A program made the position numbers and the translations under genes. This document shows positions 29,962 to 34,182 of a DNA stretch of 59,253 nucleotides, one piece after another. A model generated the notes under the pieces. The model saw only the letters and a list, made by a program, of their open reading frames with translations, ran no database searches and was not told the DNA's origin. The DNA comes from Gemmatimonadota bacterium (GTDB taxonomy: Bacteria; Gemmatimonadota; Gemmatimonadetes; Longimicrobiales; Gaopeijiaceae). Location: NCBI GenBank assembly GCA_007124095.1, contig SLFU01000209.1, positions 1-59,253 of the forward strand. The letters run 5' to 3'. Position 1 is the first letter of the stretch, and each line of letters starts with the position of its first letter.

Positions 29962-30207
29962 CTATGGGGGGGTCAGCTCGAAGTGGGTGTAGTTCTTGGC
30001 AATATACGAGGTCCACTCCTCCGGCACGTCCGTGTCGGGAAAGATCGCCTGGACAGGGCACTCCGGCTCACAGGCCCCACAGTCGATGCACTCGTCCGGA
30101 TGGATGTAGAACTGATCGTCGGATTCGTAGATGCAATCCACCGGACATACGTCGACACAGCTCGCATCCTTGGTGTCTATGCACGGCTCGGTAATGATGT
30201 ATGTCAT
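29962..30207 (-). CDS. 7Fe-type ferredoxin (3Fe-4S plus 4Fe-4S)
   Basis: [25 protein letters not shown] ... [12 protein letters not shown]. Confidence 0.9.
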
Positions 30208-30212
30208 GGGAT

Positions 30213-30791
30213 CTATTTTTTCCTTTTCCCCGAAGGGAATTCGGCCTCATTCAGGACCCGTCCGGGCCCCTTCGCGCCTCCGGTTACACCACCGGAATCC
30301 CGACGTGCCCCCCGAACGTGTCCAGTGGGAGGGTCGGCGCGGGGGATCTCCCGGACACTGCCTCCGGGTTCCGGATCCCGGCACCAGGCCCGGATCCGCG
30401 GAGGTTCGGAGCCCCGGGTGAACCCCGCGATCACCCATACCGTGTGGGGCCAGAGCTCCATGAACCGTCGATCCACGGGAGAGGGTACCGGTTCGCTATC
30501 GGGGTGGGTGTGGTAGAACCCCACCACCTCCTCTTCGGATTCACGGAGGGACTTCTCGACCTCCAGGAGGCGAAGCGGATCGATCATGAATCGATTCCGT
30601 CGCCTCTCGGGAGGCTCGGTGTTGGGCGTGGGGACGATCGAGGTCACAAGCACGACCCCCTCCGCACTTCTCCGACCGACGAGGAGGCCGCACGCCTCCT
30701 CCGCGGCCGCAGCGCGAGCCTCGGCGACGACTGCGTCCCCCACCTCCTCGAACCAGGCCCAGCCCGTCACACGCGAGGGAGTGCGGATCAA
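30213..30791 (-). CDS. JAMM/MPN+ (Mov34) metallopeptidase
   Basis: EACGLLVG ... [17 protein letters not shown] matches the E..HxHx7Sx2D motif. I propose the TTG start at 30791, which lies 4 nt after the carrier-protein stop and has GGGAG upstream. The track start at 30893 overlaps the carrier gene. Confidence 0.8.
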
Positions 30792-30795
30792 TCGC

Positions 30796-31077
30796 TCACT
30801 CCCGGCCCCCTGCGATCGAGGGAACGATCGAAACCTCGTCTCCTTCACTGACTGGGGTCTCGAGCTCCTTCTCGTAACGGATGTCGGTGCCATTCACGAA
30901 GACGTTCAGGAACTGGCGAAGCTCGCCCCCCTCCTCCGTGATCCGCGCCAGCAGATCGGGATTCTCACGTCCTACGTGAGCCAGCACGTCACGCACCGTC
31001 GCGCCCTCCGCTTCCAGCTCCCCACGACCGTGGGTCAGCTTCCTCAGGGCACTCGGCACCCGGACCGTCACACTCAT
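30796..31077 (-). CDS. MoaD/ThiS-family sulfur-carrier protein ending ...AGG-RE
   Basis: MSVTVRVPSALRKLT..FLNVFVNGTDI..GDEVSIVPSIAGGRE. The AAGGAG element favours the third ATG (31077), but 31083 and 31086 are also possible. Confidence 0.8.
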   Translation of the reverse strand: MSVTVRVPSALRKLTHGRGELEAEGATVRDVLAHVGRENPDLLARITEEGGELRQFLNVFVNGTDIRYEKELETPVSEGDEVSIVPSIAGGRE

Positions 31078-31149
31078 CGACATCATCTCCTTGCCGCATC
31101 TCACGAGTCTCCGGGGGCCCGGCGATATCCAGGGCATTCCCCGCACTTC

Positions 31150-32433
31150 TCATCCAACAGGCTCCTGCTGGCCCGCCTCGGCGAGCCGAACCACCTCCGA
31201 AAGCCTCGGGTCGATCGGTTCACCCAGCTCGAAGGTCGCTCGAGCCGCATTTGGGGTCTTCAGGCCGTTGCCCGTGATACAGAGCACGGTCGGCCCACCC
31301 TTCGCGAATCGACCCTCTCGCGCCAGCCGGGCCGCTCCGGCTACGACCACCCCGCCGGCCGTCTCCGTGAAGACCCCTTCGAGGCTGGCCAGCAACCGGA
31401 TGCCCTCCACGATCTCGTCGTCCGAGACCGCCTCGCCCCAGCCTCCGCTGTCGAGCATGGACCGGAGGGCGAAGGGGCCGTCTGCGGGGTTCCCGATCGC
31501 AAGCGAGCGAGCGATGGTGTCGGGCTTCCGGACCGGCTGGACACGACTTTCCCCCGCGTGAAGAGCATTGACGATGGGCGCACATCCCGAGGCCTGGGTC
31601 CCGAAGAGCCGCGGGGTCCGGGACTCAGCCACGAGCCCCACCTTCTCGAGCTCCTTGAAGCTCTTCTCCAGCTTCGTGATCAGGGAGCCGCCCGCCATCG
31701 GAGCCACGACATTCGCCGGCAGAGACCAGCCGAGCTGTTCGACGATCTCGAATCCGACCGTCTTCGAGCCCTCCGCATAATAGGGGCGCAGGTTCACATT
31801 CACGATCCCCCACCCGAACCGATCCGCGACCTCGGCACAGAGCCGATTCACATCATCGTATACGCCCTTGATGCGCACCAGTCGGGCTCCATGGACACCG
31901 GTGGCGACCACCTTCTCAGGTTCCAGGTCCTCCGGAATGAAGATCCACGCTTCCAATCCCGCAGACGCGGCCTGCGCCGCCACGGAGTTGGCAAGGTTAC
32001 CGGTGGAGGCACACCCCACCACAGAGATGCCGAACTCATGTGCGCGCTGGAGGGCAATGGCGACCACCCGGTCCTTGAAGGACTGGGTTGGGTGATTCGA
32101 AGAATCCGCCTTTATCCAGAGGTCCTCGATGCCGAGAGCGTCCCCGAGGCGCGGGGCCGGCAGGAGAGGGGTCCAACCAACCGCGTGTCCCCCCTCGGGA
32201 TCCCGCTCGATGGGAAGGAGCTCGCGGTAGCGCCAGAGATTGGTGGGCCGGCTGCGGATCAACTCCGGAGAAAGGGTGCCGTGGAGCCCCTCCAGGTCGT
32301 AGTCTACTTCGAGAGGTCCGAAACACTCCTCGCACACATGAAAGGGCCCCGCCTCCGTCACCGTCCCGCAGAGGCGACATCGAAGGGTGTCGAGGGTGCT
32401 GGAGGCCACCGGTCCGGTCTTCGTCTGTTTCAT
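31150..32433 (-). CDS. threonine-synthase-like PLP enzyme with an N-terminal zinc ribbon
   Basis: CRLCGTVTEAGPFHVCEECFGPLEV is a Cys4 ribbon. NHPTQSFKDRVV carries the PLP lysine. The tryptophan-synthase-beta fold is evident throughout. Confidence 0.85.
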   Translation of the reverse strand: MKQTKTGPVASSTLDTLRCRLCGTVTEAGPFHVCEECFGPLEVDYDLEGLHGTLSPELIRSRPTNLWRYRELLPIERDPEGGHAVGWTPLLPAPRLGDALGIEDLWIKADSSNHPTQSFKDRVVAIALQRAHEFGISVVGCASTGNLANSVAAQAASAGLEAWIFIPEDLEPEKVVATGVHGARLVRIKGVYDDVNRLCAEVADRFGWGIVNVNLRPYYAEGSKTVGFEIVEQLGWSLPANVVAPMAGGSLITKLEKSFKELEKVGLVAESRTPRLFGTQASGCAPIVNALHAGESRVQPVRKPDTIARSLAIGNPADGPFALRSMLDSGGWGEAVSDDEIVEGIRLLASLEGVFTETAGGVVVAGAARLAREGRFAKGGPTVLCITGNGLKTPNAARATFELGEPIDPRLSEVVRLAEAGQQEPVG

Positions 32434-32500
32434 GTTGAGTACCCGTCTTCCACAGGGGAGCCTTGATCTCGGCAGCCCGCGCTGACGCCGCCGCTCCCGT

Positions 32501-32541
32501 AAACAAAAAAGCCCAGACCTCCATCGGGAGGAGGCCGGGGC
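32501..32541 (-). terminator. intrinsic terminator in the leader of the thrC-like operon (attenuator B)
   Basis: Minus strand: GCCCCGGCCTCC-tcccgat-GGAGGTCTGGGC followed by TTTTTTGTTT. It ends 67 nt upstream of the ATG at 32433. Confidence 0.8.
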
Positions 32542-32572
32542 TCGTTCAGCTCGTCGGATCCGTTGCTTGCTG

Positions 32573-32671
32573 CTAAGGCCCTCCGGACACGACCGTCCCC
32601 GCCCTGACCTCCTCGAGCGAGGAAGCCATCATGGAACAGCCGCACATGCTGATTGTGGCGGTTGCGGTCAT
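32573..32671 (-). CDS. Cys/Met-codon leader peptide of the thrC-like/moaD/JAMM operon
   Basis: Hand translation gives ATG ACC GCA ACC GCC ACA ATC AGC ATG TGC GGC TGT TCC ATG ATG GCT TCC TCG CTC GAG GAG GTC AGG GCG GGG ACG GTC GTG TCC GGA GGG CCT TAG, which is MTATATISMCGCSMMASSLEEVRAGTVVSGGP. The inner start at 32647 gives MCGCSMM... I see no strong SD, so the start is uncertain. Confidence 0.45.
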   Translation of the reverse strand: MTATATISMCGCSMMASSLEEVRAGTVVSGGP

Positions 32672-32958
32672 GTTGACGCTCGTGTCTGGCTTCTTTCGGA
32701 CTACAGCTCTCACGACCCGTGGGACGGACGGCCGCAGAAAGCACGGAACGAAACGCTATGCAACCACCCACCGCCAGTCAAGCCCCACCGGATTCGTTCG
32801 CCCCTCACGGAGGGAGGCCCGGCCGAAGATGATGACGATAATGAGCCTTGACAGCCCTCTCCATCCCGACCGAGCATACGGTACATCCTGAAGACATGCT
32901 GAAAGCGGGTCCAAGCGCCGCCAAGCCTTCGTTCCACTCTCCACGAGGTCAAATCACT

Positions 32959-34182
32959 GTGAACCGATTCCATCCCCTCCTGACCGTCCTCGTCCTTTTC
33001 GGATTGGCGGCGTGCGACGCCTCATCGGCCGACGGGCCCGAACCCGCCAACAGCGCCCCTTCCGCCGTCGAGTTCGAGGTCTGGGCGGCGGACCAGAACC
33101 TCAACCAGGTTTACATTCTGGGGCCAGACGGGGAGGTCCTCCGCACCATTGATGCCTCGGAGCTCGGAGGAGCCGATCGTCCGCACATGCTCTGGGGCGT
33201 CCCGGGCGACGGCTACGTCTACAGCGCGAACACAGTTTCGGCCTCCGTTTCCATACTCGACCGACGGTCTGGAGAAGTGGTGGAGGTGATCGAAGAAGTG
33301 GGCCAGGCTCCCCACGCGGCGCAGCCCAATCCGACCCGCCCCGACCGAATCTACGTCTTCAACATCGCCCCTCAGGAATCCGACGCCGACGGAATGCCCG
33401 ACCGGGGGGAGACGATCGCCGAAATCGTTCGGACGGATGGCGCGGACGGACCGAGCTGGGAGCTCACGCGCTTCCTGGACCTCAGGGCGGATCCCGCGCT
33501 GGCCGACTCGGATCTCTTTCCCAGCCGCCGGCCGGTGTGTGGAGGGTTTTCCCCGGATGGGAGCCACCTCCTGGTGACCCTCTTCAATGGAGGACTGGCC
33601 GTGGTCGACCTGGACGGATGGAGCGTTTCGCGAGCGTGGGGGAGTGACGAGATCGCGGAGCACGGATGCGGCTTCGCCTCGTCCTTGGATGGGGAGGAAA
33701 TCTACGTGACCGCCGGAGGCATGCACGAGTCATGGATGTACGTCTTCGACGTGGGGGGAGCCGAGCCCCAGCTGGTTGCGACGCATGACCTCTCCGGAGC
33801 GGGCCAGGACGCGCACGGCGTCTACGTCGATCCGGTGCGAGACGAGCTCTGGGTCGTGCACCGGGCGAGCGACAACATCACCATCCATCCGCTCGCGTCG
33901 ATCCAGACGGAGGGCCACGACTTCGAGACCATCGACTTCGTGGGGTCCGCGCCGGACCTCGTGGCCTTCTCCCCCGACGCGAGCCGGGCCTACCTGACCT
34001 TGCGCGGGCCGAATCCGGCGCCCACCATCCCGCACGCCACCGTAGGCGAGACTCCCGGAGTGACGATCATCGACGTTCCGGGCCGGGAGGTCCTCGAGAT
34101 CGTGCCCCTCGGAGACCAGATCGAAGCCGATTTCCACGGAATCTTCATCCCGGAGGCGAACCACGGCATCGGAGGCTCCTGA
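32959..34182 (+). CDS. beta-propeller (YVTN/YncE-like) lipoprotein
   Basis: LLTVLVLFGLAAC is a lipobox. The rest shows a repeated strand-rich pattern typical of propeller repeats (VYILGPDGEVLRTID, VYSANTVSASVSILD, LLVTLFNGGLAVVDL, IYVTAGG, LWVVHRASDNITIH). I prefer the GTG start at 32959, with 32896 as an alternative. Confidence 0.7.
   Translation: MNRFHPLLTVLVLFGLAACDASSADGPEPANSAPSAVEFEVWAADQNLNQVYILGPDGEVLRTIDASELGGADRPHMLWGVPGDGYVYSANTVSASVSILDRRSGEVVEVIEEVGQAPHAAQPNPTRPDRIYVFNIAPQESDADGMPDRGETIAEIVRTDGADGPSWELTRFLDLRADPALADSDLFPSRRPVCGGFSPDGSHLLVTLFNGGLAVVDLDGWSVSRAWGSDEIAEHGCGFASSLDGEEIYVTAGGMHESWMYVFDVGGAEPQLVATHDLSGAGQDAHGVYVDPVRDELWVVHRASDNITIHPLASIQTEGHDFETIDFVGSAPDLVAFSPDASRAYLTLRGPNPAPTIPHATVGETPGVTIIDVPGREVLEIVPLGDQIEADFHGIFIPEANHGIGGS

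Follow-up and report, generated by a model that had tools for sequence, protein, structure and literature searches.

What controls the operon for a ThrC-like enzyme, a ThiS-like carrier, a JAMM protease and a ferredoxin in the Gemmatimonadota bacterium of assembly GCA_007124095.1? The question was raised by contig SLFU01000209.1, which was analyzed over 59,253 nt (hereafter, the window; coordinates given without a locus name refer to it). A first-pass annotation had pointed to a short open reading frame (ORF) with Cys and Met codons upstream of the operon, followed by a terminator, and had proposed that the two form an attenuator. In this study, we computed which sequence elements are present, how well they are conserved, how they can pair alternatively and how specific they are versus controls, and the element in the window showed every feature of the leader-peptide attenuator class that can be tested on a sequence. 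From these analyses, we consider it quite probable that the element is a ribosome-mediated transcription attenuator of the trp/his type, in which codons for Cys and Met serve as the sensor, and that it controls the thrC-like/ThiS-like/JAMM/ferredoxin operon.

The short ORF was present on the minus strand where it had been read before, from 32671, or from an inner start at 32647, to 32573, and its peptide is MTATATIS-MCGCSMMASSLEEVRAGTVVSGGP. The leader and the sites around it are as follows.

32573..32671, minus strand: leader ORF of 32 codons plus TAG, MTATATISMCGCSMMASSLEEVRAGTVVSGGP and stop, read from the sequence, with an equivalent ORF in all 11 other distinct leaders described below.
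32627..32647, minus strand: regulatory codon cluster ATG TGC GGC TGT TCC ATG ATG (M C G C S M M), with two Cys and three Met codons in seven.
32753..32781, minus strand: putative sigma-70-type promoter, proposed from conservation, with a -35 element TTGACT at 32781-32776, a 17-nt spacer and a -10 element TAGCGT at 32758-32753.

The ORF contains two in-frame ATG codons (32671-32669 and 32647-32645) and one stop codon, TAG, at 32575-32573. In the cluster, the Cys codons are located at 32644-42 and 32638-36, and the Met codons at 32647-45, 32632-30 and 32629-27. Both synonyms for Cys, TGC and TGT, were used in the clusters.

Relatives of the leader were collected by exact-protein look-ups of the closest ThrC-like homologues. 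These gave 11 further distinct leaders, or 12 with the window, in front of orthologous genes whose products were 68-87% identical to the window's protein; the loci are designated here by L numbers. Six leaders, including that of the window, were alignable at the nucleotide level, and the remaining ones shared the architecture only. An in-frame cluster of Cys and/or Met codons was observed in all of the 12 leaders:

window: MCGCSMM
L081: MCDCSMM
L084: MCRFLM
L087: MCRCRM
L213: MCMCRCSM
L215: MCRSMMM
L208: MCRRM
L217: MHMSM
L220: MCTGMCMCM
L211: MCMCCMMM
L218: MYMCMMM
L216: MCCCC

The clusters expanded and contracted by whole codons (MCMCCMMM, MCMCRCSM, MCCCC, MYMCMMM), and the peptide outside the cluster was conserved neither in sequence nor in length. 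As read from the sequences, conserved codons within a drifting peptide are the pattern expected of regulatory codons, and not that of an aptamer or of a functional micro-protein. The surrounding architecture was also retained: in every leader, the last regulatory codon was followed after 0-8 nt by the start of a hairpin, and the stop codon after 20-33 nt by a terminator (-15 to -33 kcal/mol). Furthermore, an in-frame start codon was found 5-10 codons before the cluster in 11 of the 12 leaders (ATG in 10 and GTG in one), the exception being L216, where the ORF begins directly at MCCCC behind an AGGGAG Shine-Dalgarno sequence. Because of this arrangement, the upstream ATG at 32671 appears to be a likelier start in the window than the inner ATG at 32647. 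The leaders of the window and L081 are preceded by a conserved TTGAC-N17-TAnnnT block, which was also seen by eye in L208, L211, L213 and L215-L220. A consensus scan made no promoter call at 32753..32781. The block TTGACT-N17-TAGCGT is probably the promoter of the leader, with transcription starting near 32746, and this start would leave about 75 nt of RNA 5' of the ATG at 32671.

The strong minus-strand terminator expected from the first-pass annotation was found at 32541-32501. Its hairpin had an energy of -20.9 kcal/mol, the consensus scan reported the same terminator, and the distance from the end of its tail to the ATG of the thrC-like gene (32433) was 67 nt. The terminator and the segments that can pair with it or with each other are listed below.

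32541-32530, minus strand: terminator 5' arm, GCCCCGGCCTCC, read from the sequence.
32529-32523, minus strand: terminator loop of 7 nt, read from the sequence.
32522-32511, minus strand: segment 4, the terminator 3' arm, GGAGGTCTGGGC / GGAGGUCUGGGC, which completes the intrinsic terminator together with the U-tract, read from the sequence and from the consensus scan.
32510-32501, minus strand: U-tract, TTTTTTGTTT / UUUUUUGUUU, read from the sequence.
32619..32627, minus strand: segment 1, GGCUUCCUC, the 5' strand of the 1:2 anti-anti-terminator hairpin in the predicted minimum free energy (MFE) fold.
32601..32614, minus strand: segment 2, GAGGAGGUCAGGGC, the partner of segment 1 or of the terminator 5' arm according to duplex energy and masked folding.
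32528..32541, minus strand: segment 3, GCCCCGGCCUCCUC, which is the terminator 5' arm and can pair with segment 2 according to duplex energy and masked folding.
32553..32593, minus strand: middle hairpin, GUCGUGUCCG...CGGAUCCGAC, with the TAG at 32575-32573 in its loop, enclosed by the 2:3 helix in the fold and the alignment.

Segment 1 opens on the final base of the last Met codon. Segment 2 holds the 12-mer GGAGGTCAGGGC (32612-32601), for which a near match to the terminator 3' arm had been reported; the match was confirmed at 11 of 12 positions. The duplex of segments 2 and 3 (32614-32601 with 32541-32528) had an energy of -27.8 kcal/mol, with z = -2.7 versus shuffles.

For the switch test in the window, the nascent RNA was folded up to the terminator loop with the ribosome footprint masked at set positions. 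Hairpin 1:2 formed when no ribosome was present. When the masked footprint was that of a ribosome with the second Cys codon or the Met codons in its A site, helix 2:3 replaced hairpin 1:2 and enclosed the middle hairpin. With the ribosome at the stop codon, the terminator alone formed in silico. This change from 1:2 to 2:3, together with the conservation of the cluster in all 12 leaders, supports the earlier proposal of a Cys/Met-codon leader with segments 1, 2, 3 and 4. In alignment A4, the helix at 27-35/40-48, which corresponds to hairpin 1:2, was 85% paired, with two pairs changed on both sides; the middle-hairpin helix at 61-70/93-102 was 89% paired in six sequences, and the terminator helix was 93% paired across six sequences. 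The middle hairpin was kept in the close clade only and was gone in L208, L211, L216 and L217.

The most stable pairing of the terminator 5' arm with the region past the cluster kept a constant position across the 12 leaders, +30 to +52 nt from the cluster. In L217 and the window clade, the 2:3 duplex reached -25 to -30 kcal/mol; its z value was -2.1 or lower versus shuffles in 7 of the 12 leaders, and its two partners changed together by lineage (GAGGAGG/CCUCCUC, GGGGAAGG/CCUUCCCC and GAGCAGG/CCUGCUC). Column-wise pairing in the six alignable leaders was 89.5%, as against 32-55% with slid partners. The segment resembling the 3' arm, which had been suggested to compete for the 5' arm, is conserved in function in the window clade and L217; seven leaders were above shuffles, and the other five were indistinguishable from them.

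The specificity of the arrangement was examined by scanning for short ORFs with at least one Cys codon and at least four Cys plus Met codons in eight, and requiring, no more than about 130 nt further on, a hairpin at least as stable as -14 kcal/mol with a T-run. No such ORF was found on either strand in 1.28 Mb of unrelated control loci, whereas 76.5 kb of Gemmatimonadota loci contained 10, each in front of sulfur genes. When the whole 59-kb window was scanned on both strands with a stricter cut (at least two Cys and at least four Cys plus Met codons in eight), three short ORFs were obtained. Only two of the three have a terminator, namely the thrC-like leader (leader B) and a leader in front of cysH (leader A):

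27312-27226, minus strand: leader A, MKRAFTLCCAMCCCCQIPLRGGSGRCCA and stop, with a GAGGA Shine-Dalgarno sequence and the cluster LCCAMCCCC, upstream of cysH (27099).
Within 27312-27160, minus strand: terminator of leader A, GGCCCCGACCTC...GAGGTCGGGGC plus TTTTTT, upstream of cysH.

Leaders A and B showed weak nhmmer similarity between their 3' halves (E = 0.0085). The opinion that chance would hardly place two Cys-codon leaders in this window is thus borne out by the scans. The ATGTGC start context and the TAG end, which had been described as common to both leaders, were indeed shared within the window, but TAG was not universal among the relatives: the leader ends in TAA in L215 and in TGA in L211 and L218.

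If the element works as these pairings suggest, transcription would start at about 32746 and a ribosome would translate the 32-codon leader from 32671. With ample Cys-tRNA and Met-tRNA, the ribosome would pass segments 1 and 2 and reach the TAG at 32575, segments 3 and 4 would pair, and transcription would terminate at 32510-32501. Termination would likewise be expected when the leader is untranslated, with hairpin 1:2 sequestering segment 2. When charged tRNA-Cys or tRNA-Met is scarce, the ribosome would stall on codons 10-15 (32644-32627) with its footprint over segment 1; the freed segment 2 could then pair with segment 3 before segment 4 is made, no terminator would form, and the polymerase would read through into the operon.

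Several points weigh against this interpretation. All of its support is computational, and we infer the translation of the leader, the stalling, the kinetic competition and the starvation signals. A Shine-Dalgarno sequence was absent before both start codons of the window leader (32671 and 32647); this is not decisive, because the thrC-like, JAMM and CbiX genes are also without one. In equilibrium MFE folding, the terminator persisted in most relatives despite the masking of segment 1. The model therefore depends on kinetic competition, like that of the classical systems, and this result led us to use nascent-RNA folds up to segment 3 and duplex energies as the tests. In L208, L211, L216, L218 and L220, the best 2:3 duplex was no better than shuffles (z = -0.3 to -0.9). 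A check of conservation and covariation in relatives had been recommended by the first-pass annotation. The codon cluster passed it in all 12 leaders, but column-wise covariation in the six alignable leaders was weak: double-sided changes numbered two in the terminator state and one in the anti-terminator state, and most covariation measures did not exceed their shuffle controls. The helix registers shift between lineages, close sequences vary little, and statistical covariation support is not claimed. The sample comprises 12 leaders from one phylum, Gemmatimonadota, several of them closely related. Finally, Cys sensing is more secure than Met sensing, because Met starvation would also impair initiation and thereby favour termination. 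The in-frame AUG codons could be partly usable as alternative starts.

Since a known riboswitch might have explained the terminator, as the first-pass annotation had pointed out, the window was compared with Rfam. Rfam 15 at gathering scores gave no match in the whole window, and a search of 32380-33000 at E<=10 gave only sub-threshold sX13 and Atu_C7, which aligned the terminator alone. The same search detected SAM-I or SAM-II riboswitches, which sense S-adenosylmethionine (SAM), in nine related loci; therefore, the negative result in the window is meaningful. In L008, L010, L016 and L042 (Planctomycetota/Verrucomicrobiota), SAM-I (RF00162) was located about 100-330 nt upstream of an orthologous 'threonine synthase', and in L050 and L052 (other Gemmatimonadota), SAM-II alone preceded the thrC-like gene. 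Three loci carried a SAM-II riboswitch together with the leader:

L208, 2697-2771: SAM-II (RF00521) with its own terminator, then a Cys/Met leader ORF and a second terminator.
L217, 2733-2808: SAM-II (RF00521) with its own terminator, then a Cys/Met leader ORF and a second terminator.
L220, 2691-2764: SAM-II (RF00521) with its own terminator, then a Cys/Met leader ORF and a second terminator.

In these three loci, two predicted sensors thus stand in series on one mRNA leader. Since each has its own terminator, the Cys/Met leader is expected to be a separate sensor module, able to replace or supplement a riboswitch. The presence of SAM-I and SAM-II before the orthologues ties the operon to methionine metabolism and marks the site as a regulatory slot; the SAM-I elements indicate that the gene family belongs to methionine, and not threonine, biosynthesis.

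These data bear on the other explanations of the locus. If an undescribed riboswitch or another ligand- or protein-binding leader RNA ran the terminator, the ORF would be incidental. Such an RNA would fit the invariant stretches (GUCCGGAGG, GGAUYCG and GAACGAGCCCCG) that the six alignable leaders share at only 75-87% identity of the downstream protein, the good conservation of the middle hairpin in the close clade, and the fact that riboswitches do control orthologues of the thrC-like gene. We regard it as very unlikely, however: the invariant stretches and the middle hairpin vanish in L208, L211, L216, L217, L218 and L220, whereas the codons, hairpin 1:2 and the terminator stay; Rfam at E<=10 gave nothing beyond the terminator-only alignments; and the leader is a separate module in the three lineages with a complete SAM-II and its terminator upstream. 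Another protein-based possibility is that the run of AUG and UGY triplets is not read as codons and is instead the site of a multimeric RNA-binding attenuation protein similar to TRAP. TRAP binds (G/U)AG repeats, and the B. subtilis trp leader has such repeats 5' of the anti-terminator, a layout that the repeated trinucleotides just 5' of the anti-terminator resemble here. TRAP itself is described in PMC4027176. The triplets, however, follow one another without gaps and share the frame of an upstream start; in all 12 leaders, the ORF that holds them stops 20-33 nt ahead of the terminator 5' arm. The two triplet types are exactly the codons of the sulfur amino acids, with a ratio that follows the function of the downstream operon, and no linked candidate gene for a binding protein was found in the loci examined. 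A TRAP-like site is highly improbable on this evidence.

The ORF might also encode a functional Cys-rich micro-protein, or the unit might be an independent small RNA, with the operon transcribed from its own promoter further downstream. A terminated transcript of 240 nt would arise in any case, the 67 nt between the terminator and the gene in the window would accommodate this view, and attenuator-derived small RNAs and leader peptides with functions in trans are known, namely rnTrpL and peTrpL (PMC6614838 and PMC7298713). We consider such an independent unit quite unlikely. The peptide beyond the cluster is unconserved in sequence or length, several relatives have only 24-40 nt from the U-tract to the start codon, leaving little room for a promoter, and the element recurs specifically before sulfur genes; moreover, a role in trans would supplement attenuation in cis, not replace it. 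As to mere coincidence, intergenic DNA of 65% GC readily contains open frames of 25-35 codons as well as stable hairpins, and shuffled sequences already reach duplexes of about -20 kcal/mol. Nevertheless, 1.28 Mb of control DNA yielded no case, whereas the related loci yielded 10 in 76.5 kb and the window two, all before sulfur genes; this result and the conservation of the cluster across 12 leaders make the likelihood of a chance ORF and hairpin next to negligible. A chance origin was effectively refuted by the control scans and the 12-leader conservation.

The operon that the attenuator would control starts with the thrC-like gene, and its products were identified by Pfam/NCBIfam matches:

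31150-32433, minus strand: ThrC-like pyridoxal phosphate enzyme with an N-terminal Cys4 ribbon, the first regulated gene.
30796-31146, minus strand: ThiS/MoaD-like carrier, with the C-terminus GG-RE read from the sequence.
30213-30893, minus strand: JAMM protease (Prok-JAB match).
29962-30207, minus strand: ferredoxin.

Beyond the ferredoxin gene are cobA on the plus strand and then, on the minus strand, a CbiX/DR2241-type chelatase gene, leader A, cysH and a gene for a MoeZ-type ThiF-rhodanese protein. The carrier ends in ...SIAGG-RE, and its Gly-Gly would be exposed only after C-terminal trimming, which fits the adjoining JAMM protease. The start of the carrier gene is uncertain, GTG 31146 and internal starts near 31071 both being possible. 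A route from O-phosphohomoserine to homocysteine by MetM, MetO, Mec and MoeZ has been described; its MetM enzyme is homologous to threonine synthase and is frequently mis-annotated (bioRxiv 10.1101/2024.10.14.618325). The gene set of this route was found in the window, since PALP/ThrC, ThiS, Prok-JAB and ThiF plus Rhodanese were all matched. We infer that the thrC-like gene encodes a MetM-like homocysteine synthase and that the operon provides a MetM-MetO-Mec-type route via a protein thiocarboxylate. A search of PDB with the thrC-like enzyme gave ordinary threonine synthases only and no MetM. The closest named homologues of the protein came from Gemmatimonadota/Longimicrobiales metagenome-assembled genomes.

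The intergenic region that holds the leader is 528 nt long and is bounded on the other side by a divergent gene starting at GTG 32962. This gene (32962-34182, plus strand) encodes a lipoprotein with the signal peptide ...LFGLAAC and a weak match to beta-propeller repeats; L081-L083 carry a similar divergent gene of unknown function.

Further Cys-rich short ORFs were found in front of other sulfur genes of the related loci:

L087, 6940-7041: cysH leader, ...NCAMCCSM... (CAMCCSM), the equivalent of leader A, with a terminator.
L220, 6268-6435: Cys-rich ORF ARMMCCCTYAMAC (MMCCC) before ferredoxin and sulfite reductase genes, with a terminator.
L208, 6310-6417: Cys-rich ORF VVMCCCCCME (MCCCCCM) before a HEM4-family gene, with no terminator at the scan thresholds.
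L216, 5072-5164: Cys-rich ORF SQCCCCCRG (QCCCCCR) before cysG and sulfite reductase genes, with no terminator at the scan thresholds.

Upstream of cysH, siroheme and sulfite-reductase genes, the clusters consist mostly or wholly of Cys codons (LCCAMCCCC, MCCCCCM, QCCCCCR, MMCCC and CAMCCSM), and those upstream of the thrC-like operon are mixtures of Met and Cys codons. The Cys-rich short ORFs in L208, L216 and L220 suggest a Cys-sensing regulon that extends over several operons.

Outside this group, the matches listed in a scan of genome contigs with the ThrC-like protein were relatives of 50-59% identity from other phyla; they served as controls and brought SAM riboswitches to light, and nhmmer found no related leader in them. 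In Nitrospirota loci, Cys-containing short ORFs were observed before the thrC-like gene (MYNCCKCIF..., MMCTCRR..., MNCSCRR... and HGCRCN...; loci L054, L026, L080 and L045). That of L054 is located at -205..-82 from the gene start, and L054 and L026 share the string TGTTGTAAAKGCATTTT. None of the four was followed by a terminator at the thresholds of the control scan, and these ORFs may be unrelated to the leader. A metagenome pattern scan with TCCGGAGG-N(20-45)-GAACGAGCCCC gave chance matches only and no new leader. Among its chance catches was a highly conserved family of about 200 nt, ...GATGAGTGCGTGCGTAATGT...TCCGGAGGGCACCTGTTGTCGCCGGTGCG...GGGAACGAGCCCC...GCGATTCGGACCGACC..., with members in L099, L110, L111, L126, L128, L189, L192, L193 and L205. 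This family, which had no Rfam match at gathering scores in L099 and L110, might represent a structured RNA not yet described or a stretch of conserved coding sequence.

The general model of leader-peptide attenuation is summarised in bioRxiv 10.1101/834739. The window element shares with the enterobacterial trpL, hisL, thrL, leuL, pheL and ilv leaders a short ORF in the 5' leader with codons for the end product, the mutually exclusive helices 1:2, 2:3 and 3:4, an intrinsic terminator and its U-tract ahead of the first structural gene, and the depth of the regulatory codons, about 8-15 codons into the peptide. Unlike these leaders, it has codons for Cys and Met as the sensors, with the two amino acids mixed in one cluster, it belongs to a Gemmatimonadota host, and it contains an additional conserved hairpin with the stop codon between segments 2 and 3; some of its relatives are also placed in tandem after SAM-II. 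SAM-II (RF00521) and SAM-I (RF00162) occupy the same slot before thrC-like orthologues and act through a terminator as well; they sense SAM by an RNA aptamer, whereas the window is without such an aptamer.

Cys-codon ORFs have been reported in Actinobacteria. In mycobacteria, leaderless polycysteine short ORFs are Cys-responsive attenuators that act at several loci of one genome in parallel, as a 'ribulon' (Canestrari et al., bioRxiv 10.1101/834739). The likeness consists in Cys-enriched ORFs upstream of sulfur or cysteine operons at several loci, here leaders A and B and the poly-Cys leaders of the relatives. The mycobacterial elements are leaderless and translational; their Cys codons form an uninterrupted run at the ORF's 3' end, and they unmask a downstream ribosome-binding site (RBS) without an intrinsic terminator (10.1101/834739). 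In contrast, the window leader has a predicted 5' leader of about 75 nt, a mixed cluster in the middle of the ORF, and a canonical terminator with a U-tract. Judged by this terminator, 67 nt upstream of the gene, it is not a member of the mycobacterial RBS-sequestering class. Comparative genomics of Actinobacteria has also revealed candidate Cys leader peptides before cys/cbs operons, without recognisable terminators; their mode was left open and Rho was suggested (Seliverstov et al. 2005, PMC1262725). The window leader is similar to them in its Cys-codon runs upstream and differs in its explicit terminator and anti-terminator. Leader-peptide attenuation has been documented for few amino acids, mainly in Proteobacteria, Actinobacteria and some Firmicutes (PMC2965389), and our limited literature search found no terminator-based Cys or Met leader-peptide attenuator, no leader-peptide attenuator of any kind for Met, and nothing on Gemmatimonadota. 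The attenuation mechanism and the actinobacterial Cys-codon ORFs are already known; what appears to be new is the specificity, the phylogenetic setting and the combination with a riboswitch in tandem.

Taken together, we lean, with a little more than even confidence, toward a 'sulfur ribulon' in Gemmatimonadota. It would consist of terminator-based attenuators whose codons are tuned to each operon (mostly Cys, or Met plus Cys), and would include the first classical transcription attenuators that read Cys- and Met-tRNA and the first Met-sensing leader peptide. In some lineages, such an attenuator in series with SAM-II would make a two-input gate (SAM AND charged tRNA). If confirmed, the attenuator would bring both sulfur amino acids, and a phylum that has received little study, within the reach of this mode of control, and sulfur regulons in metagenome-assembled genomes could then be annotated by a simple sequence signature. 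The finding also supports moving the widely mis-annotated 'threonine synthase' beside ThiS and JAMM genes to methionine/cysteine metabolism, and the relatives with SAM-II would be naturally occurring cases in which one leader combines a riboswitch with a ribosome-based sensor in tandem.

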